Shown one piece after another: positions 1,119-48,383 of a stretch of DNA of 64,000 nt. Origin of the DNA: an uncultured Thermoproteaceae archaeon (lineage in GTDB: Archaea; Thermoproteota; Thermoprotei; Thermoproteales; Thermocladiaceae); the NCBI GenBank assembly GCA_964575955.1, contig CAZNTG010000015.1:1-64000 (forward strand), given 5' to 3'. Both the position numbers and the translations under genes were made by a program. The notes under the pieces were generated by a model. That model searched no databases. It was not told the DNA's origin and was given only the letters and a program-made list of their open reading frames with translations. Position 1 is the first letter of the stretch; each line of letters begins with the position of its first letter.

Positions 1119-1194
1119 ACCCATATAGGTAACACTTCTAACCACTCAGTATAGAGATGTTAAGCTTAAAAATCTCGCATATGAACTTATCAAA

Positions 1195-2090: not shown

Positions 2091-2091
2091 G

Positions 2092-4008
2092 CTACTTTCT
2101 AAGTAGTTTACTAACTTTTTCATATAAAATTTCTAATATATGCTCATCTGCATATATGCCAGATGGTGGATCTACAAGTTTTTTCAATCTTATAGGTATG
2201 CCATCTAGTCTGTATGCTGTTCCCTCACATTCAATTCCTGTTAATGCTACAGGTATTACAATATCAGCATATTTCAAAGTTTCACATACTTTAGGTGTTA
2301 GTAATATTACAGGTATCTTTTCAACATTCTTCATAACTTCTCCAGGAAATGATGCTGCTGGATCTGCACCTGCTACAAATAGTAGATCTGTCTCTCCTCT
2401 TCTCAGTATATCTACAGCTGTTGTTACTCCAGGTATGTATCTTGGATATCTTTTAGATAGATCAATACCGAATGGTGCTCCATAAGTCCATAGAAATACC
2501 ATATTCGCACCTGTAACGTTGAAGTGTCCTCTCATTGCTATTATTATAGCTTTTGTATGTTCATTAAGTTCTTGAATTATCTTTATTGCCTCTTCAATAT
2601 TCTTAAACTTACCACGACTATGTGTAAGTCCAACACCGAAGAATAGTATTACGTAGTTTGCTTTTCTTAAATCTTCACAGAATTTTTCAAATTCTTCAAC
2701 ACTTATTCCAGCGATATTATCCTTTTCAATTTCTAAATCTCTAAGACACATTCTAATACCTGTCAATATCTCATAGTCACGACCAGGTTTTACTATAAAT
2801 TGAGTATCTACATCTTTAACATACTCAATAGCATTTACAGGACATATACGTATACATAATCCACACTCTCTACACTTGGAGATGTCTACATCATAAGTCT
2901 TTAAACCAAGTTTACCAATTCTCTTTCTAATAACTTCAGGACAAGATTCAAAACACATGTCACAACCTGTACATCTTTTAAGATCTATACCTGTAGGTCT
3001 TTGTGGTGCTACATCTCTAACATCTATGATGTATACCTTTCTATCTCTCCTACCTTTAATGAGCTTACCCTCCCTATTTATAAATCTGTATGTGAAATTT
3101 GGATGTGCATGTGAAGGATTCCAACCCCAAAAAATTACTAGATCTGCATAATGTGTTGTAAATCCTAAAGTAAAATCACTATGTCCAGTCTCTGCAACAG
3201 CCATGAGTGTTGGTCCATGACATACAGATGATGTATTATCAACAACACCACCAACAAGTTCAGCAATTTTTAAACCAAGTCTAATAGCTTCACATGTAGT
3301 ACAACTCCAACCGTAGAATAGTGGATATCTAGAGTTTACTAGTAGATTAGCAATTTCATCAATAGCTCTCTCAAGATCTACCTCTACAAACTCACCATTC
3401 TCTCTTCTCTTAAGTGGTTTCAATACTCTATCTCTATGATAATTTACAAACTTAGCTCTACCTATAACACAACATTCTTCAACATCTATAATCTCTTCAC
3501 CACACATCTTAACTCTAACACCATCACACAATAATCCACAGAATGGACATACAGCTCTTAGAAACTTTATAGAACCTCTACGCACTACTCTATCTCCAAT
3601 TCCAGGAATATTCTTCAAAAATTGTAATTCTTTATCAACAATATCTTCCTGCTTATCAACTTTACATACTCTCACTCTAACCTGCTTGTAGTTTGGTGTT
3701 GCTGAAGCTTCAGTATATGGTGGTATTATCTTATTAATATATGATCCATATGGTACAAAGATAACACCTTCAGGACATGTATTATCAATTTTTACATACA
3801 TATCTACACAATTATCTTCTCTACATACATAAACAACATCACCATCTTTAACATCTATCTTCTCGGCATCTTTAGAATTTATATGTATAGTTTTGACACA
3901 TGTCACATATTCTCTAGAAAATCTACCAAAATTTTCAAGATAGTAACCCTGCTCTATAGATCTTCCTGTTGTTAATAGAATTTCAATACATCTATCAACT
4001 TTAGACAT
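2092..4008 (-). CDS. fwdB: Formylmethanofuran dehydrogenase FwdD-FwdB fusion with internal 2x[4Fe-4S] ferredoxin
   Basis: N-term LLTTGRSIEQG...PEGVIFVPYG (FwdD); CPFCGLLCD, SSVCHGPT, WGWNPSHAHP, MRGHFNVTG, GTAYRLDG (FwdB); two CxxCxxCxxxCP motifs inserted. Confidence 0.9.
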   Translation of the reverse strand: MSKVDRCIEILLTTGRSIEQGYYLENFGRFSREYVTCVKTIHINSKDAEKIDVKDGDVVYVCREDNCVDMYVKIDNTCPEGVIFVPYGSYINKIIPPYTEASATPNYKQVRVRVCKVDKQEDIVDKELQFLKNIPGIGDRVVRRGSIKFLRAVCPFCGLLCDGVRVKMCGEEIIDVEECCVIGRAKFVNYHRDRVLKPLKRRENGEFVEVDLERAIDEIANLLVNSRYPLFYGWSCTTCEAIRLGLKIAELVGGVVDNTSSVCHGPTLMAVAETGHSDFTLGFTTHYADLVIFWGWNPSHAHPNFTYRFINREGKLIKGRRDRKVYIIDVRDVAPQRPTGIDLKRCTGCDMCFESCPEVIRKRIGKLGLKTYDVDISKCRECGLCIRICPVNAIEYVKDVDTQFIVKPGRDYEILTGIRMCLRDLEIEKDNIAGISVEEFEKFCEDLRKANYVILFFGVGLTHSRGKFKNIEEAIKIIQELNEHTKAIIIAMRGHFNVTGANMVFLWTYGAPFGIDLSKRYPRYIPGVTTAVDILRRGETDLLFVAGADPAASFPGEVMKNVEKIPVILLTPKVCETLKYADIVIPVALTGIECEGTAYRLDGIPIRLKKLVDPPSGIYADEHILEILYEKVSKLLRK

Positions 4009-4016
4009 GGAAGTAC

Positions 4017-4853
4017 CTATGAAGGTTTTTCAATAAGTCTAATCTTTTTAAGTAGTTTACCATCACGTGAATGTGGTGTTCTTACAAGTTGATCATTATA
4101 CTTCTCAATTTCTCTAGCCTCATCTGCAAGTTTTGAAGCAATAAACATCATTTCATGAGCTGCGGATGCTATTAACGTATATTTTTCCCATTCCTTAATC
4201 TTAAAACATGCCTCTGTAGTTAGCTCAGCTACATGTCTAGCAATTTCATATGCTGCAATAGCTTTAGATAATGCATATGGATTTTTAATTTCCGAATATT
4301 CAATAACGTGATATTTATCAAATACTACTCTTGGAAGTTCTACCTTCTCACCACTCTTCAATTGTTCTACTACTCTATCAATATTCTTAACAATACATCT
4401 ATAAACTCCACATACAGTTAATACTTTTATAACGTATGTATTGTACATACACATCTCAGACATATCTAGAAATTCTCTTCTAGCACCAATCATAGAGTCT
4501 GCAAGAACTATTATATATCCATAACCATCCTCTTCAAGCTTCTTAACAATACTCTTAGCAGCTCCATCACTAATAACTATTATTGGTTTATTAGAACTTT
4601 TTAATAATTCTCTAATCTTTGTAGGTCCTGGAAGAGATGCATTTGGACTAACAACAATGTATAGATCATGATTATCTTCTAAAGCTCTCTTTGCAACTTT
4701 TTCACATAGATCTTCAATCATTTTTGAACCTGTTGAATATACAACAGTTCTAATATCTTCTCTATCAGCTCTCTCATCAAGTGCATATTCTAGAAGTACT
4801 GATGAGCCAATACATCCACATTTAACAACTCCAATACTAACTATCTTAGACAC
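4017..4853 (-). CDS. mtd: F420-dependent methylene-H4MPT dehydrogenase
   Basis: LDERADREDI, SPNASLPGP, DSMIGARREFLD, AAHEMM, DEAREIEK, RTPH are Mtd signatures. Confidence 0.93.
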   Translation of the reverse strand: MSKIVSIGVVKCGCIGSSVLLEYALDERADREDIRTVVYSTGSKMIEDLCEKVAKRALEDNHDLYIVVSPNASLPGPTKIRELLKSSNKPIIVISDGAAKSIVKKLEEDGYGYIIVLADSMIGARREFLDMSEMCMYNTYVIKVLTVCGVYRCIVKNIDRVVEQLKSGEKVELPRVVFDKYHVIEYSEIKNPYALSKAIAAYEIARHVAELTTEACFKIKEWEKYTLIASAAHEMMFIASKLADEAREIEKYNDQLVRTPHSRDGKLLKKIRLIEKPS

Positions 4854-5025
4854 CTAGTAGAGCTATTGTACAGATATTTAAGTTTAGGCATAGTTCTATA
4901 ACGATAGATTGTTAAGAAGATTATCAATATTGTAAAATTTGAGAAGAAATTTAGAGCGGTTAGGAATCCGAACTATTGCTATAAGGAGTGTAAAGTTTAA
5001 ATATGTAAAACACTTATTAAGTAAC

Positions 5026-6858
5026 ATGCCTTTTGTAGATATAGCAAATGAGGATATTAGAAAACTTGTTGAAGAAGCCGAAAGGAGAAATATAGATACA
5101 CCACATGTTAGAAGATTGAAAGTTTCTCAATGTAAGATTGGTAGAGAGGGATTATGTTGTAATGTATGTTCTGAAGGACCATGCATACTCTCTGAGAAGT
5201 ATCCATATGGTGTCTGTGGTCTAAATGTTCATCAAGTTGTAGCTAAAAATCTTCTTAGACATGTTGCTGCAGGTGTTGCATGTTATGTACATGTTTGTGA
5301 AAATACTGCTAGATCATTGTTAGAGTTAGACTATGTTAAAGATAGAGATAAGCTTGAGAAAGTATGTAAGATATTTAACATAGATGTTAATCATAAAAGA
5401 CTTGCTAAACTAGTTATCGAAGACATATATAGACCTAGATGGATTGAAAGTTTTATAGTTACTAAACTTGCATATAAGCCAAGACTTGAAGTATTTAGAA
5501 GATTAGGAATAGTTCCAGGCGGTGCAAAATCTGAGATTGTTGATGCACTAGTTAAGACATCTACAAACTTAAACGCTAATGTGATAGACATGCTCTTACA
5601 TGTATTGAAACTTGGACTTATCATGGGGTATGTCGCTCTTAGAATGAATACCTGGATGAATGATATAATACTTGGAACTCCAAAGGTTGAGATGTTAGAG
5701 TCAGGTATTGGTAAGATTGATCCAACATGTGTAAATATATTAACTACAGGACATCAGACAGTACTACAACAGGCAGTTATTGAGTATGCATCTTCAAGTG
5801 AAGCTCAGGAATTAGCTAAGAGAGCAGGTGCATCAGGTATAAATATTATAGGTGGTACATGTGTTGGTCAAGATATACAGTCAAGATGGACATATCTCAA
5901 AAATAGCTGTTTTATAGGTCAATGCGTTAATAATTTTGGAACAGAACCGTTAGTTGCTAGTGGACTTATTGATGCTGTTGTTTCAGAATTTAACTGTACA
6001 TTTCCGGGACTTACAAATATTTCAAAAATTACAGGAACAAAATTGATAGCTATTGACGATGTTGCATATATTGAAGATGCAACACTACTACAGTGGAGTC
6101 CTGAAAAAGCTAGAGAAATTGCTAAGAAAGTTGTTGAACTTGCAATTGAAGCTTTCAAATCTAGATCTAGAAGGTTAGAAAGGTTTGGAAAAGTTAAGAA
6201 AGCTGTAGTAGGATTTAGTGAAGATTATATAGAGAAGAATCTGCTAGATAGGTTACTACAGCTAATAGCTGACTGTAAGATTAGAGGTATTGTAGCTCTT
6301 GTAGGTTGTTCAAATTTGATAAGTAGAGGTCATGATGTTTTGATTAGAGATTTAGCAATTGAATTATTGAAGAGAAACATAATGATATGGACTGCAGGTT
6401 GTACATCATATGGTCTTCAAGGTCTTGGATTTATGAGTGAAGAAGCATTAAGATATGCTGGAGATGATCTACAAGATGCTTGTAGAGAATTGAACCTACC
6501 GCCAGTGTGGGATTTTGGATTATGTATGAGTATTTCAAGAATAGTATACATAGCTGAGAAGATATCTGAGAAGTTGAATGTTGACCTACCTGACTTACCT
6601 ATAGCTGTCTCAGCACCACAATGGCTTGAAGAACAGGCACTTGGAGATGCTGCATATGCATTAGCATGCGGCTTTCTACTTCATGTATATCCATCACCGT
6701 TCATAGATGGTTCAACAGTCGTCAAATCTATACTTACTGAAAAGCTTGTAGATATCACAGGTGGCAAACTATATATTGAGGATGATCCTGTGAAAGCTGC
6801 TGAAACTATTGAAAAACATATTAATGATAGAAGGAGGAGATTAAATTTAAAGACTTAA
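5026..6858 (+). CDS. cooS: CooS-type Ni,Fe CO dehydrogenase family protein (non-canonical active site)
   Basis: QCKIGREGLCCNVCSEGPC...VCG (D/B clusters), TGH, FNCT, VGCS, AGCT, GLC (C cluster); ATG 5026 preferred over TTG 4939. Confidence 0.88.
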   Translation: MPFVDIANEDIRKLVEEAERRNIDTPHVRRLKVSQCKIGREGLCCNVCSEGPCILSEKYPYGVCGLNVHQVVAKNLLRHVAAGVACYVHVCENTARSLLELDYVKDRDKLEKVCKIFNIDVNHKRLAKLVIEDIYRPRWIESFIVTKLAYKPRLEVFRRLGIVPGGAKSEIVDALVKTSTNLNANVIDMLLHVLKLGLIMGYVALRMNTWMNDIILGTPKVEMLESGIGKIDPTCVNILTTGHQTVLQQAVIEYASSSEAQELAKRAGASGINIIGGTCVGQDIQSRWTYLKNSCFIGQCVNNFGTEPLVASGLIDAVVSEFNCTFPGLTNISKITGTKLIAIDDVAYIEDATLLQWSPEKAREIAKKVVELAIEAFKSRSRRLERFGKVKKAVVGFSEDYIEKNLLDRLLQLIADCKIRGIVALVGCSNLISRGHDVLIRDLAIELLKRNIMIWTAGCTSYGLQGLGFMSEEALRYAGDDLQDACRELNLPPVWDFGLCMSISRIVYIAEKISEKLNVDLPDLPIAVSAPQWLEEQALGDAAYALACGFLLHVYPSPFIDGSTVVKSILTEKLVDITGGKLYIEDDPVKAAETIEKHINDRRRRLNLKT

Positions 6859-7787: not shown

Positions 7788-7839
7788 GCTATAGTGAGAT
7801 TAGAAATTCCGTATAGAAGAATCTACGAGTATCTAGTCC

Positions 7840-11839: not shown

Positions 11840-13729
11840 CTAGGTTATCGGTCTATATTGTGGTCTCATACTTAATCTTCTAGGCATATAGAGTCCACAT
11901 CTTGGATAATTATCAATCTCTCTTTCAATAGTTTCTACTAGCTCTTCAATACTCATCTTCCTCAAATTCTTCTCACCTCTAATTCTAACTGTGAGAATGT
12001 TTGAATTAACTTCTTCTCTACCTATAACAACTATGTAGGGTATCCACATCTTTTCAGCTTCTCTAATTCTCTTACTCACAGTTTCATCTCTATCGTCAAT
12101 ATCAACTCTAATACTTCTAGATTCTAAAATATTCGCAATATTTTCACAATATTGTAAAAATTCTGTAGTTACAGGTATTAACCTAACCTGTATTGGACAT
12201 ATCCATGTTGGTAATCTTGGAATTTTTCCACACTTCTCATCTATTGCAGCTTTTTGAAATAGAGCGTATATATAACGTTCAACACTGCCGATAAGTGCTG
12301 TATGTATAATTACAGGATACCTATCCTCTCCTGTTGATGTTCTATACTTAATTCCAAATCTAGAAGCATTACCAATATCAATCTGCATTGTAGCTATCTC
12401 TCTAGGTCTTTCAAGCTCATCAATTATGTGAAATTCTGCATTTAAAACCCAATAATACTTCTTCTCTCTAATAACTTTGACTAATATTGGCTTATCTTCA
12501 ATCTTTGATAGTTGTTTTAAATATTCAACGTTGTTAATATAGAAGTCTTCAGTAACATTATATAGAGATACATAGTCAAGACCTATCTTCCTAATTTCAT
12601 CAAATATAACTTCATGAACTTTCAAACACATATTTTTAGCATCTTCAAGATCTTTAGTAAATATGTGTAGATCAGGCATTGTAAATTTTCTAACTCTAAA
12701 ACATAGTACTGTCTCTCCTGGCTGTTCATATCTGTAACTATCTGCAATTTCGAGAACACCAAAAGGTAAGTCTCTATAGCTTATAATCCAGTCTTTAATC
12801 ATTGAAAATTGTTGAAAACAGGCTGCATATCTTAGAACAAGTTTTTCACCATCACTATCTATTATGTACATTCTTTCTCCAAAAAGTTTTGCATGTTCTT
12901 CTATTGGTTTACAGGATAGCTTAAACATATTTGTACCACGTACTTTAAATATGGGTATTCCAAGTCTATTAGCAACTTGCCATGAATATTTTTCAACTAG
13001 CTCATACATTATACATGCTTCAGGTCCAAATCTCATATGTCCAATATCTGACATGGGCTCCCACTCAATTCCAAACTTCTTACAGTATGTCAAGTATCTA
13101 GGCTCCTCACCACCCTTCAATTCTTCTCTAAGTGCTTCTTTACTTACAAGAATGTCAAAATCTCTATACCTACCTCTAAACTTTGTTAAGTACTCATCAA
13201 CCTTTAGAACTTCACCATCAGGAGTTATAACTACAAAATAACTTTCAACCTCAACTTTCTCTCTCTTCTCTTCTCCAATCTTCAATTCCTTAATCTCAGG
13301 TTCATAGCTTCTACTAAGTTCAGATAGTGGATGACCATAACATCTTATTTCAAAACTTTTATAATATCCGAATGGTGCAGTTATGACTTTAATATTTCTA
13401 CTTTCAGCAATTTTCTTAGCTATATCACAAATCTTCTCATATATCTTAATAGCTTTTGAAGGTTTTGCAAGTCTAGAACTTAGATGTGCATATGGGTATA
13501 TTACTAAATTTTTAGCATTAACTTTATAGAATACTTGTAATATATCTTCAATAATTTTAGAGAGATAATTCTCATCTTCAATATCTACATCTTCAATCGT
13601 TGTAAATACTACTAATGCATTTTCTGCAGAAGCTTCAACTCTACTACTATCAATATCTGGAATATCTTTCAAAGCCTTCTCTCTAACTTTATACCAAAAC
13701 TTCTCAGCATGTATTAGTAGTATCCTCAC
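11840..13729 (-). CDS. thrS: Threonyl-tRNA synthetase (archaeal type with N-terminal editing domain)
   Basis: MRILLIHA, YPYAHLS, PFGYYK, GHPLSELSR, LRYAACF, YRYEQPGE, IIHTALIGSVER. Confidence 0.97.
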   Translation of the reverse strand: MRILLIHAEKFWYKVREKALKDIPDIDSSRVEASAENALVVFTTIEDVDIEDENYLSKIIEDILQVFYKVNAKNLVIYPYAHLSSRLAKPSKAIKIYEKICDIAKKIAESRNIKVITAPFGYYKSFEIRCYGHPLSELSRSYEPEIKELKIGEEKREKVEVESYFVVITPDGEVLKVDEYLTKFRGRYRDFDILVSKEALREELKGGEEPRYLTYCKKFGIEWEPMSDIGHMRFGPEACIMYELVEKYSWQVANRLGIPIFKVRGTNMFKLSCKPIEEHAKLFGERMYIIDSDGEKLVLRYAACFQQFSMIKDWIISYRDLPFGVLEIADSYRYEQPGETVLCFRVRKFTMPDLHIFTKDLEDAKNMCLKVHEVIFDEIRKIGLDYVSLYNVTEDFYINNVEYLKQLSKIEDKPILVKVIREKKYYWVLNAEFHIIDELERPREIATMQIDIGNASRFGIKYRTSTGEDRYPVIIHTALIGSVERYIYALFQKAAIDEKCGKIPRLPTWICPIQVRLIPVTTEFLQYCENIANILESRSIRVDIDDRDETVSKRIREAEKMWIPYIVVIGREEVNSNILTVRIRGEKNLRKMSIEELVETIEREIDNYPRCGLYMPRRLSMRPQYRPIT

Positions 13730-14730: not shown

Positions 14731-15765
14731 ATGGCAACGTTCGGTCTAGGTCTTATGATAACTACGTATATATGTTTTATAATACTTGTAGTAGTGTTTG
14801 CTAGTAGAGCAGGTAGAGTTGCAACATTACCAACACCTATAAGATGGGAGATATATCCTGTTCCTCATGAAGAACCTGAGAAAGCTCATCGTGGAAGTTC
14901 TTATTATGAAGATTTAGAGTGGTGGAAGAAGCCTAGACATCTATGGCATGCAGGTGAGTTGAAGGAGACTTTGAAGGAGATGTTATTTATGGTTAGACTT
15001 TTTGAGAGGAAGAGAATTGTCTGGATATTTAGCTATCCATTTCATGTAGGTATATACCTAATACTTGCATGGATAATACTACTATTCATAGGTGCTATAA
15101 CTGAGATATGTGGACTACCTGTAGCTGTACCTGCAAGTACAGTACACTACACAGGTCCTCTAAAGTATTTGATAATCGGAAACTTCGCACCATTCAATCA
15201 CCCATGGTCGATATTCCTATATGTGGTGACTATGATTGCAGGATATGTAGGTGCTGCATGTCTAATATTTGGATGTGTTGGATTGATAGTTTTGAGATTT
15301 GCAAAATCTGAACTTAGAAGATATACAAGATTTGCAGACTATTTCAACCTATTCTTCATACTTGCAGTAGTAGTATCAGGATGGGTTGCTGCCGCATATG
15401 ATCCAACATTTACAATAGCTAGAGAATATATGAGAGCATTACTAACATTTACTCCAGTCGAATATCTAATAGCTAAATTTGGAATTACTGGACTACCACC
15501 AGCAGTATCAGTACAGGTAGTCATATTTGAAGTATTCTTAGCGTACTACCCATTCACAAGAATGATACATGGACCATTAAAATATGTTAGCTATCACAAA
15601 GTTGCTTGGGATAATGCACCAAGAATACCTGGAGTTAGGACTAGTCTAGATGCTCTAATAAACAAGTATCTAGACTATGTATTAACTTGGGAAGGACCAC
15701 ATGTACCTAAAGGACATAAGTGGAGAGATCTTAGAACAGTCTGGCCCGAGGTGAGAAAAACATAA
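14731..15765 (+). CDS. dsrM: DsrM/HmeC-like (NarI family) membrane cytochrome b
   Basis: RWEIYPVPHE, GSSYYE, YPFHVGIYL, YYPFTRMIH; multiple TM helices; upstream of DsrK-like gene. Confidence 0.8.
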   Translation: MATFGLGLMITTYICFIILVVVFASRAGRVATLPTPIRWEIYPVPHEEPEKAHRGSSYYEDLEWWKKPRHLWHAGELKETLKEMLFMVRLFERKRIVWIFSYPFHVGIYLILAWIILLFIGAITEICGLPVAVPASTVHYTGPLKYLIIGNFAPFNHPWSIFLYVVTMIAGYVGAACLIFGCVGLIVLRFAKSELRRYTRFADYFNLFFILAVVVSGWVAAAYDPTFTIAREYMRALLTFTPVEYLIAKFGITGLPPAVSVQVVIFEVFLAYYPFTRMIHGPLKYVSYHKVAWDNAPRIPGVRTSLDALINKYLDYVLTWEGPHVPKGHKWRDLRTVWPEVRKT

Positions 15766-15798
15766 AACATACTCAAAAATTTAAAAAGGGTGTAAATT

Positions 15799-17442
15799 AT
15801 GTCTTCTGCTAAGTCAAAATCTAAGATAATTCCTGAAGAGAGACTTAAAGATCCAAGTAAGTTAAGACCAGAAGATCTAGCAATTCCTGAGGAAGTACAG
15901 GTTACACGTCTTGTAGATGAGTGGTTAATGCCTCTACCTTTCATAAAGCCTGAAGAAGAACCAAAACCAAAACCACCCCCTGAATCATGGAGGAAGGAGA
16001 TGCTTAATCTACTTCTAGATGGTTTTGCAAATTTCCCAATTTTAAGACCAAAATCTAAGGAGGAGGAACAGGAAATTGTTAGGAAGTTTATTGAAGGTAT
16101 TAAGAAGCTGTTCTCAATTCCAGACAATTGGACTCAGATAAAGCCACTAATACTCACAGTTGAGTATTGTGCTAGATGTCAAACATGTGCTGAAGTATGT
16201 CAAATATTTATATCAGCAGGTAAGAGACATGAGTATCTAAGACCAACATTTAAGACAGAGATTCTGAGAATGCTATATGAGAAGTATGTTAAAGGTAAGA
16301 AGAATGTTCCAATAGAAGCAAACATATACCTCATAGCAAGACTGTACGAACTTGCATATAGATGTACTGTATGTAGAAGATGTTTCCAATTCTGTCCACT
16401 TGGACTAGATCAAGGAATTGTAACTAGAGAACTTAGAAAACTCTTCAGTCAACAGTTTGGTTGGGCACCTAAAGAACTACATGAACTAGGAACAGTACAG
16501 CAGTTGAGAGTTGGTTCATCAACAGGTACATCACCAAAAGCAATGCTTCAAATGGTTAAGTGGATGGAGGAGGATATTAAGGAGAAGACTGGTAAGAGGA
16601 TTAGAATTCCTGTTGATGAGAAAGGTGCAGATATATTGATAATACACAACTATGGAGAATTTCTATCATGGCCAGAAAATCCTGAGGCATTTGCAATAAT
16701 ATTTGAAGAAGCAGGAATTAGCTGGACTCTCGCAAGCATACCACCAGGATATGATGCTGTAAACTACGGACTATACTACGATGATGTACAGCTAGCTAAG
16801 ATAGCTATGGCACATCTAGAAGTTGCTAGAAAGCTAGAGGTTAAGAAGGTTATTATTGGTGAGTGTGGTCATGCACATAGAGCACTTATACAACTAGCAG
16901 ATAGAGTACTACCTGACGATTTGAAAGATATACCAAGAGAATCATGTATGCCACTACTCGCAGAGCTTGTAGAGAAGGGTAAGCTAAATCTAGATCCTGA
17001 AAAGAATAACTTCCCAGTAACACTACACGATCCATGTAACATGGTTAGAATGATGGGTATTGTAGAACCACAGAGAAGAATACTCAGAAAGATATGTCCA
17101 CTATTTAGAGAGATGGAGCCACATGGAGTAAAGAACTTCTGCTGCGGTGCAGGTGGTGCATTTGCAATAATGTATGGATACAACTTCCCAGACTGGAAGT
17201 ATAAAGTTGCTGGTAGAATGAAGGTTAAGCAGACATTAGAAGCATTTAAAGATTGTATTGATCCAAAAATACCAAAGTATCTATGTGCTCCATGTAGTAA
17301 CTGTAAAGGTATGATTAGAGACACATTCACATACTACAACATATGGGAGAGATTTAGAATACTGTATGGAGGTCTAGTAGAGTTGATAGTTAACGCAATG
17401 GTAGATATAGAAAAGCCATTCATAGAGTGGGAGTGGAGATAA
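15799..17442 (+). CDS. dsrK: DsrK/HmeD-like (HdrD family) Fe-S protein
   Basis: CARCQTCAEVC, CTVCRRCFQFCP, ECGHA, HDPCN, CCGAGG, CAPCSNC. Confidence 0.82.
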   Translation: MSSAKSKSKIIPEERLKDPSKLRPEDLAIPEEVQVTRLVDEWLMPLPFIKPEEEPKPKPPPESWRKEMLNLLLDGFANFPILRPKSKEEEQEIVRKFIEGIKKLFSIPDNWTQIKPLILTVEYCARCQTCAEVCQIFISAGKRHEYLRPTFKTEILRMLYEKYVKGKKNVPIEANIYLIARLYELAYRCTVCRRCFQFCPLGLDQGIVTRELRKLFSQQFGWAPKELHELGTVQQLRVGSSTGTSPKAMLQMVKWMEEDIKEKTGKRIRIPVDEKGADILIIHNYGEFLSWPENPEAFAIIFEEAGISWTLASIPPGYDAVNYGLYYDDVQLAKIAMAHLEVARKLEVKKVIIGECGHAHRALIQLADRVLPDDLKDIPRESCMPLLAELVEKGKLNLDPEKNNFPVTLHDPCNMVRMMGIVEPQRRILRKICPLFREMEPHGVKNFCCGAGGAFAIMYGYNFPDWKYKVAGRMKVKQTLEAFKDCIDPKIPKYLCAPCSNCKGMIRDTFTYYNIWERFRILYGGLVELIVNAMVDIEKPFIEWEWR

Positions 17443-31674: not shown

Positions 31675-32349
31675 ATGCCTGAGAGAGTAGTGATCAGGGG
31701 GAGACCAGAAGATTTAGAAAAGGCAGCTACAGAAGAGGCAATTGAGAGAGGTGAAGCTAGGTCAGTAGTTGAGGAAGTTGAAGGTAGGAAAGTTCTACGT
31801 ATTAGATGGATTACAGGTAAGACATCTGCAGGTAGATTATTTGGAAGGTATGGTAAAGAGGGAAGACCAGACTTCTTCAGACTACTCTTTGGAGCAATTG
31901 CAGGAAGTTTGAAAGAGCAGTTTGGTGAGAAGGGTGATGAAATGTTTAATAAATTGAGAGAGTCTAAAGAGTTTAAGGAAAGTCTTTCAAGACTATTTGA
32001 AGAGATGAAGAGCTGGTTCTTTAATGATATTGTGCCAAAATATGGTATTGAACCTGGAGATATATTTGTAATAACTGCAGAACTAGAAGTTGATCTAGAC
32101 ACAGGACGTATTGAGTGGAATAGAGATAAGACAAGTATAATATACTGGATTAGAAGTGATAAATTACAAGAGAAGTGTAAAGAGATTGTACAGCCAAGTG
32201 AAGAGGTTGAAAAGCTCAAAAAGGCATTAGAAGAGAAAGAAAGAGAGTTAGAACAACTTAGAAGAGAGTTGGAGGAGTTGAAGAAGAAGCTTGCAGCTAA
32301 AAAGAAGACAAAGAAGAAAGAGAAAGAAGAGAGTGAAGAAGAGGAGTAA
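31675..32349 (+). CDS. ThermoDBP single-stranded DNA-binding protein (Thermoproteales-type)
   Basis: IRWITGKTSAGRLFGRYG..GRPDFF.LLFGA.AGSL.EQFG...WNRDKT..IYWIRSD matches the recalled Thermoproteus tenax ThermoDBP; C-terminal leucine zipper and charged tail. Confidence 0.9.
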   Translation: MPERVVIRGRPEDLEKAATEEAIERGEARSVVEEVEGRKVLRIRWITGKTSAGRLFGRYGKEGRPDFFRLLFGAIAGSLKEQFGEKGDEMFNKLRESKEFKESLSRLFEEMKSWFFNDIVPKYGIEPGDIFVITAELEVDLDTGRIEWNRDKTSIIYWIRSDKLQEKCKEIVQPSEEVEKLKKALEEKERELEQLRRELEELKKKLAAKKKTKKKEKEESEEEE

Positions 32350-36725: not shown

Positions 36726-36941
36726 AGCGGTACTCCGCGGACAGGCAAATAGCCGGACACCACCGGCGACGGGGTGTCCGAGGAAACTCCCCCACCGTGC
36801 CGCGGGCCCGTGGGGGTAACCCCGATATATGCGGGCGGTGGCTCAAATAAGGGCCGATGAACTACCGCGGGGGGATGGCCCGGGTAGAGCCTGAGAGGAA
36901 TGTTACAGAAGGGGGGTTATGCCTGTCCGCGGAGTACCGCT
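36726..36941 (+). ncRNA. rnpB: RNase P RNA, minimal type T-like (~216 nt)
   Basis: GC-rich island; 22-bp terminal helix; CR-I GAGGAAACTCCCCC and CR-V ACAGAAGGGGGGTTAT form P4; too short to hold an S-domain. Confidence 0.92.
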
Positions 36942-40275: not shown

Positions 40276-40950
40276 ATGCATAGACTAAACGTGACTATAG
40301 AGTTTAAGAATGGTAATGAGAGAGATATTGAGATAGCTGTAAATGAACTAATAGTCTTCTCATGGACAGGTAGGAATATAGATATTGTTAAGAAGCTTGT
40401 TGAAGAAAGAGAGAAGTTTGGTATAAAACCAAAAACAATACCAGAATACTACAGACTACAGCCATACCTGATAACTACAAGTAACTATATACGTAAGATA
40501 TCTGAAACACATGCAGGAGAGGTTGAGTATGTACTATTGATACGTAATGAAGATGAGATATTTATCACAGTTGGAAGCGATCACACAGATCTAGATGCAG
40601 AGAGATGTAGCATCTTAGCAGGTAAGCATATGTATCCTAAGGTAGTTGCTAGAAGAGCATGGCCATTAGAGGAAGTTGAAGATCATATAGATAAGATAAT
40701 ATTGAGAAGTTGGATACTTGAAGATAGTAGAAAGGTAATATATCAAGAAGGTTCATTAAGCCTATTAGTAAGACCAGACAAATTGATAGAGCAGGTTAAG
40801 GAGATTGTTGGAGATTTAAGAAATGTTGTAGTATTCTCAGGAACAATACCAACAAATACAGGACAGTTAAAAGTTAGTGAATACTTTGAAATTAAAATGA
40901 TAGATCCTGTACTTAATAGAGAGATATCACACTACTATTGGATTGATTAA
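40276..40950 (+). CDS. DUF2848 / fumarylacetoacetate-hydrolase-like protein
   Basis: WTGRN, GEVEY, VGSDHTD, YQEG, FSGT. Confidence 0.82.
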   Translation: MHRLNVTIEFKNGNERDIEIAVNELIVFSWTGRNIDIVKKLVEEREKFGIKPKTIPEYYRLQPYLITTSNYIRKISETHAGEVEYVLLIRNEDEIFITVGSDHTDLDAERCSILAGKHMYPKVVARRAWPLEEVEDHIDKIILRSWILEDSRKVIYQEGSLSLLVRPDKLIEQVKEIVGDLRNVVVFSGTIPTNTGQLKVSEYFEIKMIDPVLNREISHYYWID

Positions 40951-42218
40951 AAAACTATATTAACAATTTTAATACATTCTCTCAACATTTCTACAGGATA
41001 GAAAATACCTATAATAATGACTAAAGCTGTAAGTATTACTAACGGTATTATCAATCTTCTACTAACATTACTAGATCTATAATTTCTATATAGCTTAATG
41101 TAGTATGGCACTGATAGTACACTATTAGCTATGACTAATATTGCAAGCCATACTTGACCACAACTCAATATGTATAGTATTATGAAGAGTTTTGGCCAAA
41201 AACCTATGAGTGGCGGTATTCCTATTAAGGATAGTGCATGTATTAGAGATATACCTCTAACATTTCTATAATCAGTATCTAAACCTATAAATAGGGCACA
41301 TTTAGAAATTGCAACAGAGATTATATGAAATATAAACACTCCAAGACATGGTAGTAGAAGTTTTTCATTTAAAAATCCTACAGATAAGACAGCAATACCA
41401 TATCCTGTCTGTGCAATAGTTGAAAATGCTAATATATGTTCAATATCTTTTGAAAATAGTGCACCGAGATTTCCAATAAACATTGTAATTATAGAGATTG
41501 TAGATAATGTTAAGAATAGTGTGTAGTTCATACTAACATCAATACTATAAAATACTCTACATAATGCCAATATTGCAACAATCTTCATAAACGATGCAAG
41601 CATAGCTACAGACTCTCTATCACTACCCTTATATACGTCAGGTATCCACACATGTAGAGGAACAATACCAAGTTCATACGCTATTCCAAAAAGTATTAAT
41701 AGTATTGGAATGATAATCACGTTACGTAAAACCTCTAGGTAAGATATTCCAAATATGAGAAGTGTTGCACCAATAGCTGAGAATACTAGATATTTAATAC
41801 AGGAAATTATAGAACTTCTACTTCTAGCTCTAGCAAGTAATGGTGCAAATATTGCAGAAGTTACTAACCATATACATGCTACAGTTATGAAGTTTTTAAA
41901 CAATATTAAAAATATTGATAGATAACTAATTATTAGATATATTAGAGATTGTGCAGGTGTAAATTTATAATCAACAATCTCTAAACAGGAAGAGGAACAT
42001 AGTAATACTATCAATATGACTAGTATAGGTATAGCACTACAAGATAGTTCATGATTAAGATTAGCTACATATAGTAGATATATGTATGGTATTGATGTTA
42101 AAATTATGCTTAAATATTTAGAAATTTTATACAATCTAAAAATCCATAACAGTAAAATTATGACTATTGATACTGTTAGTAGTAATGTTAATTGTGATAA
42201 TATAACTTCCATAGACAT
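40947..42218 (-). CDS. nuoN: Complex I-like antiporter subunit N
   Basis: KYLVFSAIG, VPLHVWIPDVY, LAFSTIAQTGY, GIPPLIGFWPK. Confidence 0.85.
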   Translation of the reverse strand: MSMEVILSQLTLLLTVSIVIILLLWIFRLYKISKYLSIILTSIPYIYLLYVANLNHELSCSAIPILVILIVLLCSSSCLEIVDYKFTPAQSLIYLIISYLSIFLILFKNFITVACIWLVTSAIFAPLLARARSRSSIISCIKYLVFSAIGATLLIFGISYLEVLRNVIIIPILLILFGIAYELGIVPLHVWIPDVYKGSDRESVAMLASFMKIVAILALCRVFYSIDVSMNYTLFLTLSTISIITMFIGNLGALFSKDIEHILAFSTIAQTGYGIAVLSVGFLNEKLLLPCLGVFIFHIISVAISKCALFIGLDTDYRNVRGISLIHALSLIGIPPLIGFWPKLFIILYILSCGQVWLAILVIANSVLSVPYYIKLYRNYRSSNVSRRLIIPLVILTALVIIIGIFYPVEMLRECIKIVNIVF

Positions 42219-42221
42219 AGT

Positions 42222-44087
42222 CTAAATAACGTGTAGAATTATAACAAGTACTAGTAGTGTCATTACTGCTAAAATACTTGCATATGCTAAATCTCTAATA
42301 AACTTCTCAACATGTATCTTACTCACTAATCTACATACTCTATCTACAAAACTTCTAGGAAATTTAAAGTGAATAATATTATCTATAATCTTATCAATAC
42401 TATACATACTACGCATAATTTTTATAATATTAGAACTATGTATTATAGAGTCTATAAGTGTTGAAATTTTATAAATTTCCTTAAACATTTTCATAAATAT
42501 TTTAGGTATTAACATGTCTATCATGTATGGAAGTCCAAGTCTTAACTTTAAGATTTTGATAATATTTCTAAATCTAATTTTTGAGAAATATCTTATTGCT
42601 AGTAGTATACATAGTATAGATATTGTCTGAGATATTATTGTCATTATTGTTATTTCTATACTAATCCTAAAGAAGTAGTACAGTATGTATGGCATGGTCA
42701 TTATTATTAGAGTTGAATATTCCATAAATCTATCTTTAATATCAACTTCCTCAATACTTTCAATACCTTCTTTCTTAAGTTTCCAAAATGTTAAGATTAT
42801 CTTCATTAGTAGTAATATTGAGATTATGTGTGTTGTTAATAGTAGTGGTATTGTATATTGTGGTGATAATTCTATAGATTTTTCAGTCATTATAAATCCA
42901 AGACTTGGAAAGATGACACCGAACAAGTTTGCTGATGATAGTATTAGTGCAGTATATGCTTGTCTAAATCTTAGAAATACCTTAATATCATCTATAAATC
43001 TTGTCTTAGCTACATGCATTGTGTATCCACATGTCATGAATAGACACGCTTTACTTAGACCATGTGCAAGTAGTATTACTAGTCCTAGTATTAGGTAGTC
43101 TATGTTTAGAGTATACCAGTATAGTATTGATGTGTATAGTAGTAATCCTACATATATTGTTGTTGATGCTGCTAAGATAACTTTAACTTCTCTAGATGCA
43201 AGACCTAGAATACCTGAAACTACAGTTGAGGATAGTGTATAGATTAGTAATGGCTGTACTACACTACTTGGAATGTGTAAATATGGAGCGATTTTAAATA
43301 TTGTAAATGCACCAGCATTAACAAGTGTTGTAGAGTGTATCATGGCTGATGCAGGTGTTGGACCTGCCATAGCTGTGAATAGCCATTCTGTGAATGGTAT
43401 CTGTGCTGATGGTACTAATGTTGCAAATATGATTAAGAATTGTACAAGCGTATTACTAATCTTCAACAATGATGGTAGTAGGACAGATTTAGCATATGTA
43501 AATGCTAGACAGGAAGCAATCAACATACTACACGTACCAACACTAGTAATCATTATAGCTCTAAATGCTGCCTGTGATGGAGACCATAGTAATGACATTC
43601 CTCTACATGTATATCCTTCACCAACATATCTCTCAGGTTCATCTCTATACCAATGACCTATGAGAGAGTAGCTACATAACTCTAAAATATTCCAAGATAT
43701 TGTAATAGTTATTAAATCGTATGAAAAGAATAGTAATAATGTTCCAAAATACATAAGTGAACTAAACATGAAAAACCATCCTCTTCTATAGTCATCCCAT
43801 AGATAACCTATAGAGTATAGCTCTACAAGTAGTATTATCAATGTTGCAGATATTGCATACAATATCCATATCTTATCAATACATAATGCAAGTGTCAAGT
43901 TTCCAATATCAAAATATTTTAATACTAACCTATGCTTAGTGTAGAAGTATAGATATATTAAAAGTATGAGATCTACAAATGATGCAATACATGTAGCATA
44001 GCCTCTTCTAAGTAATAATTCTAAAATTCCTGCAAATATTGGTAATAGTAGTATTGTTAAAACTATGAATATAACCATACTACACAC
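42222..44087 (-). CDS. nuoL: Complex I-like antiporter subunit L
   Basis: SAQIPFTEWLFTAMAGPTPASAMIHSTTLVNAG, HGLSKACLF. Confidence 0.87.
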   Translation of the reverse strand: MCSMVIFIVLTILLLPIFAGILELLLRRGYATCIASFVDLILLIYLYFYTKHRLVLKYFDIGNLTLALCIDKIWILYAISATLIILLVELYSIGYLWDDYRRGWFFMFSSLMYFGTLLLFFSYDLITITISWNILELCSYSLIGHWYRDEPERYVGEGYTCRGMSLLWSPSQAAFRAIMITSVGTCSMLIASCLAFTYAKSVLLPSLLKISNTLVQFLIIFATLVPSAQIPFTEWLFTAMAGPTPASAMIHSTTLVNAGAFTIFKIAPYLHIPSSVVQPLLIYTLSSTVVSGILGLASREVKVILAASTTIYVGLLLYTSILYWYTLNIDYLILGLVILLAHGLSKACLFMTCGYTMHVAKTRFIDDIKVFLRFRQAYTALILSSANLFGVIFPSLGFIMTEKSIELSPQYTIPLLLTTHIISILLLMKIILTFWKLKKEGIESIEEVDIKDRFMEYSTLIIMTMPYILYYFFRISIEITIMTIISQTISILCILLAIRYFSKIRFRNIIKILKLRLGLPYMIDMLIPKIFMKMFKEIYKISTLIDSIIHSSNIIKIMRSMYSIDKIIDNIIHFKFPRSFVDRVCRLVSKIHVEKFIRDLAYASILAVMTLLVLVIILHVI

Positions 44088-45558
44088 CTCTAGAGAGTAT
44101 TATATAGTTAAATTTTGATACACCGAATAGTAACATATTCAATACTTGAGGTATCATTAATACTATAGTCAATATTGATAATAATATTATTGGTATATCC
44201 ATTGAGTAGAGTGGTCTAACTCTTCTAAGATGTTGAGCTGTTCCAAAGTATAGTCTTCTCATTGCATAGAAGCAGTATGCTATTGTTACTAGTAGTGCTA
44301 TTATGTACATAATTATCATGAATATCTTAAGATTTAGAGAAAGTGCAGCAACAGTATTCAACATTGTCAATGTTAAATATATTTTTGAGAAAAGTCCAAT
44401 ATTAAATATTCCTGATAGACTTATAAATCCTATAATACCAGCAACAGCTACAGGTCTATAGACGTCGTAGAGTCCAAATAGATCTGTGAAAGATCTATAT
44501 CCAAGCCTTGTTATACAAAATCCACCGAACATGAATAGTAGTGATTTTGCAAGTGCATGTGCTATAAATACTAGAATTAGTGCAACTTCACCAATGTAGT
44601 TACACAATGCTATACAAATAACCATGGATCCCATGTGTGAAATTGATGAATATGCTAGAAATCTCTTAATATCATTCTCACTAAGTGCCATAGCTCCTCC
44701 ATATATCATAGTTATAATACCATAGGCTGTTAATGGTATTGATATTGATTTTAGAAGAGTGCTGTAAAATGTGTGTAATATCTCCATCAATACAAATCCT
44801 GCAATACCAATATGGACAGGACTGAGTATAGCACTGACAGGTGAGGGAGCTTCTGCATGTGCCCATGGAAGCCAGAAATGTACCATAAATGTGCCCATCT
44901 TTATTAAAAATCCTACTAAGATTAGGAAGAATGCAACATATACATAACCTGCATATTGTATATGTATGCTAGTTATCATAAACGTACCATATTGAACATA
45001 CATCAATATTATTCCACATAGTACTAACAGTGATGCAACTTGACTCCACACTAAGTACAATAGTGCAACTCTATATCTATCTCCATAACCATACATTAAG
45101 ATTAGTAGAAAACTTGTAATAGCTGCAAGTTCTAAAAATATGAACATTATAATTAAATTCCTACTATACACCATCCCCATTAGTCCAAGTATGTATAAGA
45201 TGTATAGTATGTAATATCTTGAAAGATCTAGACCAATCTTCAATTCTTCACATCTATGTTCCATATAGCTTAATGAGTATATTGATACGCATGTTGCTAC
45301 AATTCCTGTTGTTAATATTATTGGTGCTGATATTGGATTAATCCAGAAAACTACATTTCCAATATATGGTATTTGAATATACTTCTCAACTATGAGTATC
45401 GTATGCTTATAGTAGTATATTAGTGATGGTATTAGCATAGATATGCAGGATATTGTAGACATTATGCATCTAGCAATGTTTGATATAGTTCTAAATCTGA
45501 GTAGTCCTATCAGGATTGTTATAGCTATTGGTATGTATAGTAGAAATATTTCAATCAT
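44080..45558 (-). CDS. nuoM: Complex I-like antiporter subunit M
   Basis: HFWLPWAHAEAPSPVSAILS, LAYSSISHMG; ATG 45558. Confidence 0.87.
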   Translation of the reverse strand: MIEIFLLYIPIAITILIGLLRFRTISNIARCIMSTISCISMLIPSLIYYYKHTILIVEKYIQIPYIGNVVFWINPISAPIILTTGIVATCVSIYSLSYMEHRCEELKIGLDLSRYYILYILYILGLMGMVYSRNLIIMFIFLELAAITSFLLILMYGYGDRYRVALLYLVWSQVASLLVLCGIILMYVQYGTFMITSIHIQYAGYVYVAFFLILVGFLIKMGTFMVHFWLPWAHAEAPSPVSAILSPVHIGIAGFVLMEILHTFYSTLLKSISIPLTAYGIITMIYGGAMALSENDIKRFLAYSSISHMGSMVICIALCNYIGEVALILVFIAHALAKSLLFMFGGFCITRLGYRSFTDLFGLYDVYRPVAVAGIIGFISLSGIFNIGLFSKIYLTLTMLNTVAALSLNLKIFMIIMYIIALLVTIAYCFYAMRRLYFGTAQHLRRVRPLYSMDIPIILLSILTIVLMIPQVLNMLLFGVSKFNYIILSRGV

Positions 45559-45565
45559 ACCTACA

Positions 45566-45868
45566 CTAGCTAACCTCTTCTTCAATTTCTTTTTCCTCAA
45601 TAACTCTATAACCTGATCTAGCAAGATAGTACAGTAATCCTATCATTAATGTTGTCTCCATTATTGATGATGCTATATATGTGAATGTCAGTATTGAAGA
45701 TCTTATTGGACTTGTCAGATATAGTATTACTAATGCTGTAAGTCCTGATAGAAATAGCACTTCTAGACCAATTAGAAGTCTTACAAGATCTCTACTAACA
45801 CTTACAACTCCTACACCTATTGATAGTACTATGAATGATAATGCTATTAGAATATTAATAATGTTCAC
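45566..45868 (-). CDS. nuoK: Complex I-like subunit K
   Basis: RDLVRLLIGLE; three TM helices; operon position. Confidence 0.82.
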   Translation of the reverse strand: MNIINILIALSFIVLSIGVGVVSVSRDLVRLLIGLEVLFLSGLTALVILYLTSPIRSSILTFTYIASSIMETTLMIGLLYYLARSGYRVIEEKEIEEEVS

Positions 45869-46350
45869 TGGGTTACCCCTCTTCGGCAGAGTTGTATTAC
45901 TATTAAAAACATTACTACAGTAAGTACTATTAACAGTATTGTGATAGTTCCATATTCTGAATTATTTATAAGTGATGATGTTATCACACTAAGTGAATAT
46001 TTACTTACAGGATACTTAACACATAGATGCTTAATAAACATTGCTATTGAGATTCCAATAATAGATCCAAGAATGATGATAGGTAAAGCTCTTCTAAAAC
46101 CTATTACAGGACTCTTCAACTCTATTGCAGATGCTGCAACAATTATAAATGTTATAACAACACCAACATACACTATCAATACTAAGATTGTTAGAAAAAT
46201 ATTTGAAAATATGTAAGATATTGTAGCTATAGTAATAGCAGATATTAATAATAGTATTGCTGCAACAACATTATCTCTAACTTTTAAAATTCCTAAACAT
46301 GAGACTACACATATTGTAGATAATGTCAACAATATGACTAGTATATCCAT
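45865..46350 (-). CDS. nuoJ: Complex I-like subunit J
   Basis: LIVYVGVV motif; hydrophobic; operon position. Confidence 0.8.
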   Translation of the reverse strand: MDILVILLTLSTICVVSCLGILKVRDNVVAAILLLISAITIATISYIFSNIFLTILVLIVYVGVVITFIIVAASAIELKSPVIGFRRALPIIILGSIIGISIAMFIKHLCVKYPVSKYSLSVITSSLINNSEYGTITILLIVLTVVMFLIVIQLCRRGVTQ

Positions 46351-46374
46351 ACTCTTTGAAAGATTATTGAAAAT

Positions 46375-48042: not shown

Positions 48043-48383
48043 TCTTCAAGTCTTGAAGAATATCTTAAACCAATTATTAATGATAACACTATGACAATAA
48101 CACACATAGCTACTAGATATGCAAATTTCAATACTTGACCACATGTAGATAGTACTAGTATGTACAGTGATGCACATTCAAGACATACTGCCATAAATAC
48201 AAATCCGAAATATTGCATTATAAGCTTCTTTCTAACTCTATCTATAGGTGGATTACCAGCTTCAAATCTCAAGACTTTCAACCTCTTCAAACCTCTATAT
48301 CTTCTAGATATTAAAACGCCTAAGATAACTATACATAGAAGTACTAAAATGCAAAATGCGACGTATATAAATACCCAAATCAT
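48033..48383 (-). CDS. nuoA: Complex I-like subunit A
   Basis: RFEAGNPP, MQYF; three TM helices. Confidence 0.85.
   Translation of the reverse strand: MIWVFIYVAFCILVLLCIVILGVLISRRYRGLKRLKVLRFEAGNPPIDRVRKKLIMQYFGFVFMAVCLECASLYILVLSTCGQVLKFAYLVAMCVIVIVLSLIIGLRYSSRLEEWV

Follow-up and report, generated by a model that had tools for sequence, protein, structure and literature searches.

The window studied here is a 64,000-nucleotide stretch of DNA from an uncultured Thermoproteaceae archaeon (contig CAZNTG010000015.1, positions 1 to 64,000), which holds near its left end genes of C1 metabolism dependent on tetrahydromethanopterin (H4MPT) and coenzyme F420. Two of these, mtd and fwdDB, lie on the minus strand 8 bases apart, with fwdDB downstream, and cooS, a carbon monoxide dehydrogenase gene, is divergent from them (Table 1). 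An earlier note on this DNA had described mtd and fwdDB as an operon divergent from cooS; this was borne out, the three genes being found where it had placed them and scoring over the cut-offs of their families. Coordinates follow the numbering of the window unless a contig (C with a number) is given; G000 denotes the window's own genome, and other genomes carry handles of the same kind.

Table 1. Features of the window referred to in the text.
Feature	Position	Strand	Basis and remarks
mtd, F420-dependent methylene-H4MPT dehydrogenase	4017..4853	-	278 aa, GTG start; PF01993 and NF002162
fwdDB, fused formylmethanofuran dehydrogenase subunits D and B	2092..4008	-	638 aa; TIGR03129; matches to 5t5i_B and 5t5i_D
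FwdD-like domain of fwdDB, residues 9-125	3634..3984	-	PF01568; 5t5i_D
Inserted 2x[4Fe-4S] ferredoxin domain of fwdDB, residues ~336-405	2794..3003	-	Fer4-family hits at residues 341-405
cooS, monofunctional Ni-CO dehydrogenase catalytic subunit	5026..6858 (open frame from TTG 4939)	+	TIGR01702
AT-rich divergent spacer	4854..5025		Sequence inspection
Threonyl-tRNA synthetase (ThrRS), housekeeping gene	11840..13729	-	Pfam; used for contig placement
DsrM-like and DsrK-like pair	14731..17442	+	PF02665, 45.5 bits; NF045796 (DsrK), 306.4 bits, under the cut-off of 400
ThermoDBP (ssDBP_DBD)	31675..32349	+	PF18361, 182.6 bits
Type-T (truncated) RNase P RNA	36737..36930	+	RF02357, 85.5 bits against a cut-off of 60
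Nuo-like membrane complex without NuoEFG: NuoA, fused NuoB-NuoD, J-like, K, M, L, N	40947..48383	-	Family matches
Roadblock/LC7 proteins	194-625, 1195-1608, 50526-50942		Each one member of a pair
Partners without family match, 157-161 aa	645-1118, 1605-2090, 50030-50512		Paired with Roadblock/LC7

The Mtd sequence gave 362.4 bits with PF01993 (cut-off 25), 273 of the 274 profile positions being aligned, and 361.5 bits with NF002162, by which the curated threshold of 297 was passed; it is 70-75% identical to the Mtd proteins of six congeners. The FwdB part of the fused protein scored 445.7 bits with TIGR03129 (cut-off 327.8) in two stretches flanking an insert, and its best match among solved structures was 5t5i_B (E 2.2e-116, residues 151-335 and 406-633). 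The FwdD-like domain reached 45.2 bits with PF01568 (cut-off 26.8) and aligned with residues 2-116 of 5t5i_D (E 1.1e-15), its score with NF042908, the family of tungsten-type FwdD, being 67.2 bits and under the cut-off of 175. The cysteine motifs CPFCGLLCD and SVCHGP of the FwdB part align with identical strings in 5t5i_B, and C154, C157, C161 and C263 of FwdDB were invariant in an alignment of 26 sequences; the cysteine of SVCHGP is presumably the tungsten ligand. The AlphaFold model of FwdDB had a predicted local distance difference test value (pLDDT) of 84.4 and a predicted template-modelling score (pTM) of 0.87, and Foldseek returned 5t5m_B as its top match (E 2e-48, template-modelling score 0.92 by target length, 39% identity). 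By family score and by fold the 638-residue protein contains FwdB.

The cooS product scored 638.5 bits with TIGR01702 (cut-off 478) over profile positions 3-620 of 621. The open frame of this gene spans 4939-6858, but the similarity to the congeners' proteins begins only at residues 28-30, coinciding with an ATG at 5026, which is probably the start codon rather than the TTG at 4939. With the start placed there, the spacer between mtd and cooS measures about 172 bp. It contains a TTTAAATAT-like box about 25 bases 5' of each start, at 4873-4880 for mtd and at 4997-5005 for cooS; going by the consensus of such elements, these boxes may be archaeal TATA elements and the transcripts leaderless. The genes mtd and fwdDB are neighbours in all six other species of the genus (g1), and the SPFH and Roadblock genes that flank the locus recur in two of them.

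The insert in the FwdB part comprises about 65-70 residues with two CxxCxxCxxxCP motifs, interrupts the subunit between positions 191 and 201 of 5t5i_B, and was modelled with a pLDDT of 82-89. It was present in all seven g1 species and in none of four other fused or split FwdDB proteins aligned with them. In a homologue search over 5.8 billion proteins, 13 of the best 120 clusters combined ferredoxin, molybdopterin and FwdD-type domains, each of them at least 52% identical to the query, and the next ten clusters among those 120 were fused D-B proteins without the insert. Searched alone, the insert found its best solved matches in single modules of the polyferredoxin FwdF (9sw6_H, E 5.3e-20; 5t5i_F, E 8.6e-19) and also in those of MvhB, and it was far less similar to FwdG (E 3e-5). 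No FwdF-like polyferredoxin was found among the open frames of G000, none of whose proteins contains more than three CxxCxxCxxxC motifs. We infer that an FwdF-type module was captured here as the insert and would pass electrons to the cluster of FwdB; such a two-cluster domain within the subunit probably acts as a built-in electron entry, standing in for the separate polyferredoxin.

The metagenome-assembled genome G000 totals 1.52 Mb on 15 contigs, with 33% GC, 94.7% completeness and 0.53% contamination. Following the list that the earlier note had given as a check, it was searched for mch, ftr, mer, cdh and mcr and for markers of the cof and mpt/mfn groups. The rest of the pathway was found together with the cofactor markers. 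Mch gave 181.4 bits with PF02289 (cut-off 25), and the following scores exceeded their cut-offs: Ftr 378.6 (297), Mer 371.1 (348.7), FwdA 707.8 (392.75), FwdC 220.9 (130.65), CdhC 595.6 (355.95), CdhD 355.3 (252.9) and CdhE 521 (306). The note had expected part or all of the H4MPT methyl branch; by family search it is complete, with FwdABCD, Ftr, Mch, Mtd and Mer all encoded. The cdh cluster consists of the genes for CdhE, CdhD, CdhC and CdhA, and an AcsV-like corrinoid activase and an FrhB/FpoF-like protein are also encoded, the gene of the latter adjoining cdhA on contig C9. No match to McrA (PF02249) was obtained in this 94.7%-complete genome; the organism is not a methanogen, since methyl-coenzyme M reductase is missing, and a reading as an Mcr-based methanogen or alkanotroph was discarded. 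Beside these genes, a second, divergent Ftr-like gene was noticed at C7:100618-101619 (219.7 bits, under the cut-off of 297). The g1 Mch (C6:97589-98521 in G000) is divergent from its family profile, scoring 155-193 bits within the genus, against 307 bits in the sister genus g3 and 354 bits in family f3; its gene is clustered with those of FwdC, a dihydropteroate-synthase-like protein, Ftr and an MptN-like ligase.

Synthesis of F420, H4MPT and methanofuran was judged from marker genes. For F420, CofH reached 449.8 bits (cut-off 374.1) and CofD 271.2 bits (cut-off 257.45), the latter adjoining a CofG-like radical-SAM gene. H4MPT is represented by two RFAP synthases (153.9 and 145.3 bits, cut-off 113.5) and methanofuran by MfnB (118.5 bits, cut-off 22.4); a dihydropteroate-synthase-like protein is encoded as well, and the MptN-like ligase gene gave 225.6 bits, under the cut-off of 350. 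Two closed genomes, G007 and G010, were tested in the same way, and in neither did CofD, RFAP synthase, MfnB or CofH exceed its cut-off. The RFAP-synthase paralogues lie at C8:11955-12890 and C7:4160-5050, and both copies are also present in the congener G004. As to location, FwdA and Mer are on contig C3 with RpoB, and Mch, Ftr, FwdC, CofG, CofD, CofH and MfnB are on contig C6 with ribosomal protein L2.

Taken as enzymes, these genes would give the following route. FwdDB would be the tungsten- or molybdenum-pterin subunit which, with FwdA and FwdC, reduces CO2 to formyl-methanofuran by means of low-potential electrons; the divergently encoded CooS would probably supply CO-derived reduced ferredoxin to this step. 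Mtd would interconvert methenyl- and methylene-H4MPT using F420, and Fwd, Ftr, Mch, Mtd and Mer together with CODH/ACS (carbon monoxide dehydrogenase with acetyl-CoA synthase; CdhA, CdhC, CdhD and CdhE) would link CO2 with acetyl-CoA by the entire archaeal Wood-Ljungdahl route.

The placement of the host was approached through the markers of the window and through a species tree. ThermoDBP and the type-T-like RNase P RNA reported earlier are real (Table 1), and their description as characteristic of Thermoproteales agreed with their distribution: ThermoDBP occurred in 56 of 120 genomes of the same class, all in the window's order (f1 26/30, f2 27/29, f3 2/2), and in 0/58 outside it, and 36 of 41 relatives, among them 6/6 other g1 species, had a type-T RNase P scoring above the cut-off. 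The window's ThrRS is 71 and 65% identical to those of g1, 61% to that of g3, 55-60% to those of the order and 41% to that of one same-class genome. The species tree was computed from RpoB, ThrRS and L2 of 29 genomes (1987 columns) by a quick search, with support by the Shimodaira-Hasegawa-like approximate likelihood ratio test (SH-aLRT); the ThrRS of G042 was masked, G003 was dropped (no RpoB, partial ThrRS), and G028 had 37% of its columns filled. The order received a support of 100 with G000 inside it; f3 branches first, then f2 apart from f1, and within f1 the pair g1 and g3 (100) is sister to g5, g4 and g2 (96). The host thus placed is a low-GC (33%) genus, g1, which with g3 forms the basal clade of one family, f1, in a Thermoproteales-type order. 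The proposal of a deep Thermoproteales lineage accordingly held as regards the order, and not in the sense of a lineage outside the known families.

Two other sources of markers were tried for this tree and set aside: the ribosomal gene cluster, because such genes lie scattered in this lineage (of 18 G000 genes near L2, L2 alone had counterparts in the stretches of about 20 kb compared in 30 genomes), and RpoA', which is not adjacent to RpoB. It was also observed that the ThrRS of G042, a genome of another class (family f14), is 54% identical to that of the window and groups with f3 inside the order; the RpoB of G042 is only 56% identical and falls outside the order, and its ThrRS may be a transfer.

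Distribution was followed in the 41 relatives, the 120 same-class genomes and a sample of 401 genomes of the phylum. Mtd was found in 8 of the 41 relatives (g1 6/6, g3 1/1) and not in the 33 genomes of g2, g4, g5, g6, g7 and g8; among the 120 it occurred in 12, single genomes of f4, f10, f12 and f65 being added, and in the phylum sample in 77 of 401. CdhC was present in 10/41 (g1 6/6, g3, f3 2/2) and Mch in 9/41 (g1 5/6, g3, f3 2/2), the g1 genome without a match being 69% complete. CofH exceeded its cut-off in 8/41, exactly g1 and g3, the others having sub-threshold radical-SAM relatives only. In no other genus of f1 or f2 searched, closed genomes included, were Mtd, Mch, CdhC or over-cut-off CofH found, which agrees with the earlier remark that cultured Thermoproteales are not known for Mtd and Fwd (searched in g2, g4, g5, g6 and g8). 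The two genomes of f3, the deepest family (G026 and G028), combine CdhC with a high-scoring Mch and gave no CofH-like match; f3 may use another methylene-H4MPT dehydrogenase and another form of RNase P. From the distribution of Mtd, CdhC and Mch it follows that Wood-Ljungdahl genes are present in two early branches of the order and missing from its crown groups, to which all the closed genomes belong.

The history of the pathway was examined in gene trees. The CdhC tree contained a clade of f3 with g3 and g1 (SH-aLRT 98), in the same order as the species tree. The Mtd trees comprised 52 rows, 38 of 92 rows (mostly Bathyarchaeia, near-duplicates) and two g1 duplicates having been left out. The careful tree gave a clade of g1 and g3 (99/95), and a branch supported by 99/93 grouped it with nine metagenome-assembled genomes (MAGs) titled Desulfurococcales, Ignisphaera, Sulfolobales, Scotarchaeum or Nitrososphaeria, in all nine of which mtd is followed by a fused fwdDB; on the other side of this branch lay Archaeoglobi, Bathyarchaeia, Methanomethylicia, Asgard archaea and four other Mtds of the same class. 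Joining the g1 and g3 Mtds with these four was not rejected by the approximately unbiased (AU) test (p 0.20), and for this reason Mtd gives little signal either way. In the comparison of the Mtd tree with the species tree, which the note had called for, the clade of g1 and g3 was recovered, but it was not joined with the other Mtds of the class.

The composition of the locus was found to be native. Its GC content is 0.336 against 0.331 +/- 0.027 for windows of the genome, and in codon usage ten pathway genes range from the 5th to the 87th percentile of 809 genes, both properties being ordinary for the genome. The earlier description, CTAG-rich and CpG-poor like the housekeeping genes, was correct for CpG (observed/expected 0.25, genome 0.32); CTAG is over-represented (1.35) but below the genome mean of 1.94, at the 7.7th percentile.

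Because the CdhC tree is congruent with the species tree, many genes and cofactor pathways are involved and the composition is native, retention is favoured over transfer: the pathway was, with fair probability, inherited from the ancestor of the order and later lost in the lineages with all the closed genomes. The word "retaining", used when the locus was first described, is thus favoured by the CdhC tree and by the CdhC and Mch of f3, but is not proven in view of the AU result for Mtd. As a whole, a host in the basal clade formed with g3, possessing a complete H4MPT Wood-Ljungdahl route without Mcr and having inherited it from the ancestor of the order, would best explain the data jointly, and this combination appears quite probable from the gene content and trees.

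A number of observations weigh against this picture. The Mtds of four other families of the class are placed elsewhere in the Mtd tree, Mtd occurred in 0/2 f3 genomes, and on the species tree the event counts are equal, two losses against two gains. Type-T RNase P did not exceed its cut-off in g3 (0/1) or in f3 (0/2), and the f1 clade had a support of 93 in a quick tree of three proteins with SH-aLRT only. Among the enzymes, Mch gave 173.6 bits with TIGR03120, under the NCBIfam cut-off of 228.8, CdhA was the best match but with 607.7 bits remained under the equivalog cut-off of 781.3, and no CdhB was recognised in the cdh locus of G000. The gene cooS is divergent from mtd-fwdDB in 3/6 other g1 species, and the coupling of cooS to mtd is hence not universal; the role of the insert as an electron wire is a putative one, proposed from its sequence likeness.

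Lateral acquisition would account for several of these points. According to this explanation, the ancestor of g1 and g3 obtained the Wood-Ljungdahl and cofactor genes from other Thermoproteota, for example from the lineages of MAGs titled Desulfurococcales, Ignisphaera or Sulfolobales that have the nearest Mtd, f3 obtained them separately or through that ancestor, and the ancestor of the order had no such pathway. The patchy occurrence in 12 of 120 class genomes and 5 of 15 families, the single clade of g1 and g3, for which one gain suffices, the grouping of its Mtd with MAGs foreign to the order and not with the class's four remaining Mtds, and the lack of Mtd in f3 are all in its favour. It would nevertheless require the joint acquisition of at least 15 genes on at least 5 contigs together with three cofactor pathways, by a genome in which their codon usage and GC are native; moreover, the CdhC tree repeats the species order f3,(g3,g1), Mch also occurs in f3, the mtd-fwdDB pair is a shared arrangement in the phylum, and a common class-level Mtd clade was not rejected. 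Lateral acquisition is therefore judged rather unlikely.

If the pathway was indeed inherited from the ancestor of the order, a wider and more tentative proposal can be made. The last common ancestor of Thermoproteales might have been an F420- and H4MPT-dependent anaerobe running the Wood-Ljungdahl pathway, of which vent-dwelling g1 and g3, and f3, would be living relics; g1 might then be a crenarchaeal counterpart of Archaeoglobus (Wood-Ljungdahl pathway and DsrAB, no Mcr) with a streamlined Fwd, in which a B subunit bearing the FwdF module is fed directly by ferredoxin from CooS or hydrogenase, no polyferredoxin subunit being needed.

Archaeoglobus-type physiology couples an H4MPT Wood-Ljungdahl pathway without Mcr to dissimilatory reduction of sulfur oxyanions. 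The same inventory is found here, namely Fwd, Ftr, Mch, Mtd, Mer, CdhACDE, F420, DsrAB, DsrC, DsrMK, a Nuo-like complex in which NuoEFG are missing, and an FpoF/FrhB-like protein, with no McrA. The differences are that the window's host is a Thermoproteales-type crenarchaeon, that its Mtd is split from those of Archaeoglobi by the 99/93 branch, and that its FwdD and FwdB are fused and contain a ferredoxin insert. G000 encodes DsrA, DsrB, DsrC and two DsrMK-like pairs, of which one lies within the window; the pair could be a quinol-linked electron outlet, its link to the pathway being a possible one. The Nuo-like complex of the window, in whose cluster NuoH and NuoI were not seen, is possibly an F420H2- or ferredoxin-oxidising module. 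A separate complex on contig C11 comprises NuoH, B, L and C with a hydrogenase-type large subunit. Apart from the hydrogenase of the second cooS cluster described below, G000 encodes an Mbh/Ech-like complex as well as other [NiFe] hydrogenases. The gene content suggests an Archaeoglobus-like physiology, that is, H2- or CO-driven fixation of CO2, or oxidation of acetyl-CoA by the same enzymes; either direction would be coupled to the reduction of sulfite or thiosulfate by way of F420H2, quinone and DsrMK.

Within the Nuo-like cluster, the NuoB-NuoD fusion at 46375-48042 has 555 residues, with no recognisable NuoC between the two parts. A second cooS, encoding 608 residues, was observed at C7:17581-22426 with a CooF-like ferredoxin, a NuoI-like ferredoxin, a small subunit and the large subunit of a group-4 [NiFe] hydrogenase fused to a NuoC-like domain, a layout typical of CO-dependent H2 production.

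This second cluster is one of the points that would suit a more limited role, in which the genes are native but make up no full acetyl-CoA pathway, the H4MPT enzymes serving biosynthetic C1 supply or the handling of formaldehyde and formate, and CODH/ACS and CooS the detoxification or oxidation of CO only. Some archaea do keep parts of the H4MPT pathway without Wood-Ljungdahl (Haloferax matched Mch in a control search), one of the two CooS genes is accompanied by CooF and a group-4 hydrogenase as is typical of CO-to-H2 conversion, and serine hydroxymethyltransferase is encoded in the window. Every step from Fwd to Mer is, however, encoded together with CdhA, CdhC, CdhD, CdhE and a corrinoid activase, all of them co-occur across seven g1 species and g3, and for such a role both branches would be unneeded, which makes it improbable.

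That the Wood-Ljungdahl genes came through binning or assembly from co-occurring Bathyarchaeia, Archaeoglobi or similar organisms can hardly be believed: the 15 contigs were assembled from a metagenome and such genes are common among vent archaea, but mtd shares its contig with ThermoDBP, with RNase P-T and with a ThrRS of the order's type, independently assembled congeners show the same layout, the depth is even, one re-assembled contig covers 85-14449, the contamination estimate is 0.53% and the composition is native. The congener G004 has ThrRS and Mtd on one contig with the spacing of the window, and G005 has RpoB and Mtd on one contig. Reads and re-assembled contigs were mapped over positions 1-20000. 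A Logan contig of run X1 spans 85-14449 without differences at a depth of 19.1, the next contig having 19.6; as X1 may be the source sample, it tests the assembler and not the sample. Run X2, of a separate study, gave short contigs at least 99% alike, one of them bridging the fwdDB/mtd junction. For positions 2001-12000 no RNA run containing the stretch was listed. A chimeric contig, which had been raised as a possible objection, is accordingly unlikely, and the continuity of coverage asked for between 2 and 37 kb was found up to 14449, the mapping having covered the first 20000 positions.

At the tRNA-Met gene (14423-14499) both re-assemblies break, near 14.4 kb, the depth rises from 19 to 132, and one X1 contig is longer by 34 letters between 14439 and 14440; the appearance is that of copies of the tRNA from other organisms of the sample, some with an intron-like insert. 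Elsewhere in G000, fragments of [NiFe] hydrogenase large subunits stand at four contig ends (C6:1-1111, C1:1-1108, C5:18339-19328 and C6:620458-621363), which suggests that near-identical paralogues broke the assembly.

The enzyme itself may be compared with two known forms. With the FwdABCDFG complex of Methanothermobacter wolfeii (PDB 5T5I/5T5M) it shares the fold and cysteine motifs of FwdB, and homologues of FwdD, FwdA and FwdC are present; in g1, however, D and B form a single chain, which is interrupted after the equivalent of FwdB residue 191 by a 2x[4Fe-4S] domain. Neither an FwdF-like polyferredoxin nor FwdG was identified in the genome. With other Thermoproteota (MAGs titled Bathyarchaeia, Ignisphaera, Desulfurococcales and others) it shares the mtd-fwdDB pair, which occurs in fused form in 33 of 80 named Mtd loci, and the D-B fusion, at 33-41% identity; unlike that of g1, their FwdDB has about 565-594 residues and no ferredoxin insert. 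The insert-bearing FwdDB is a new enzyme variant, the pathway and the individual enzymes being already known. It represents a natural simplification of a CO2-reducing enzyme that is otherwise large and composed of many subunits, and could serve structural and enzymological work.

Cultured Thermoproteales, among them the hot-spring genera Caldivirga and Pyrobaculum, are textbook crenarchaea without methanopterin-based C1 chemistry. Their genera in f1 and f2 (closed genomes of 1.8-2.5 Mb) share with g1 ThermoDBP, type-T RNase P, DsrAB-like genes and an RpoB of 68-77% identity, and differ from it by the lack of the pathway genes described above. A basal clade that has the H4MPT Wood-Ljungdahl pathway in full, together with its three cofactors, and a deeper family, f3, with at least Mch and CODH/ACS, would supply the model of "ancestral Wood-Ljungdahl, repeated loss" with a concrete case within Crenarchaeota that can be dated. 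The gene content would suggest H2 or CO with CO2, sulfite or thiosulfate, and a tungsten-replete medium as culture conditions.

No description of the pathway in Thermoproteales was found in the literature searched, to which supplementary metabolic tables, where such genes may be listed, did not belong. In the parts covered, PMC9793634, PMC9802188, PMC10469681, PMC11094006, PMC11362583 and PMC12948486 do not ascribe it to this order; the dicarboxylate/4-hydroxybutyrate cycle is ascribed to it in PMC9802188 and PMC11094006, and a passage of PMC12948486 names "Thermocladiaceae (except g__JAADER01)" as the clade with oxidases. Since one congener has an accession prefix identical with this placeholder, g1 probably corresponds to that genus. 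The name "Benthortus" belongs to a genus of Caldarchaeales and is irrelevant here.

Two further groups of genes in the window deserve mention. Three paralogous pairs each consist of a Roadblock/LC7 gene and a gene for 157-161 residues without family match; the two pairs adjoining fwdDB are conserved in the congeners G004 and G001, and the pairs may be MglB-like regulators with a partner that has escaped recognition. Between the SPFH gene and a phosphoesterase gene, two overlapping genes of unknown family (7840-8751 and 8748-9527) are followed by one for a protein with a SocA/Panacea antitoxin domain (9524-9955), and this group may represent a toxin-antitoxin or defence module.

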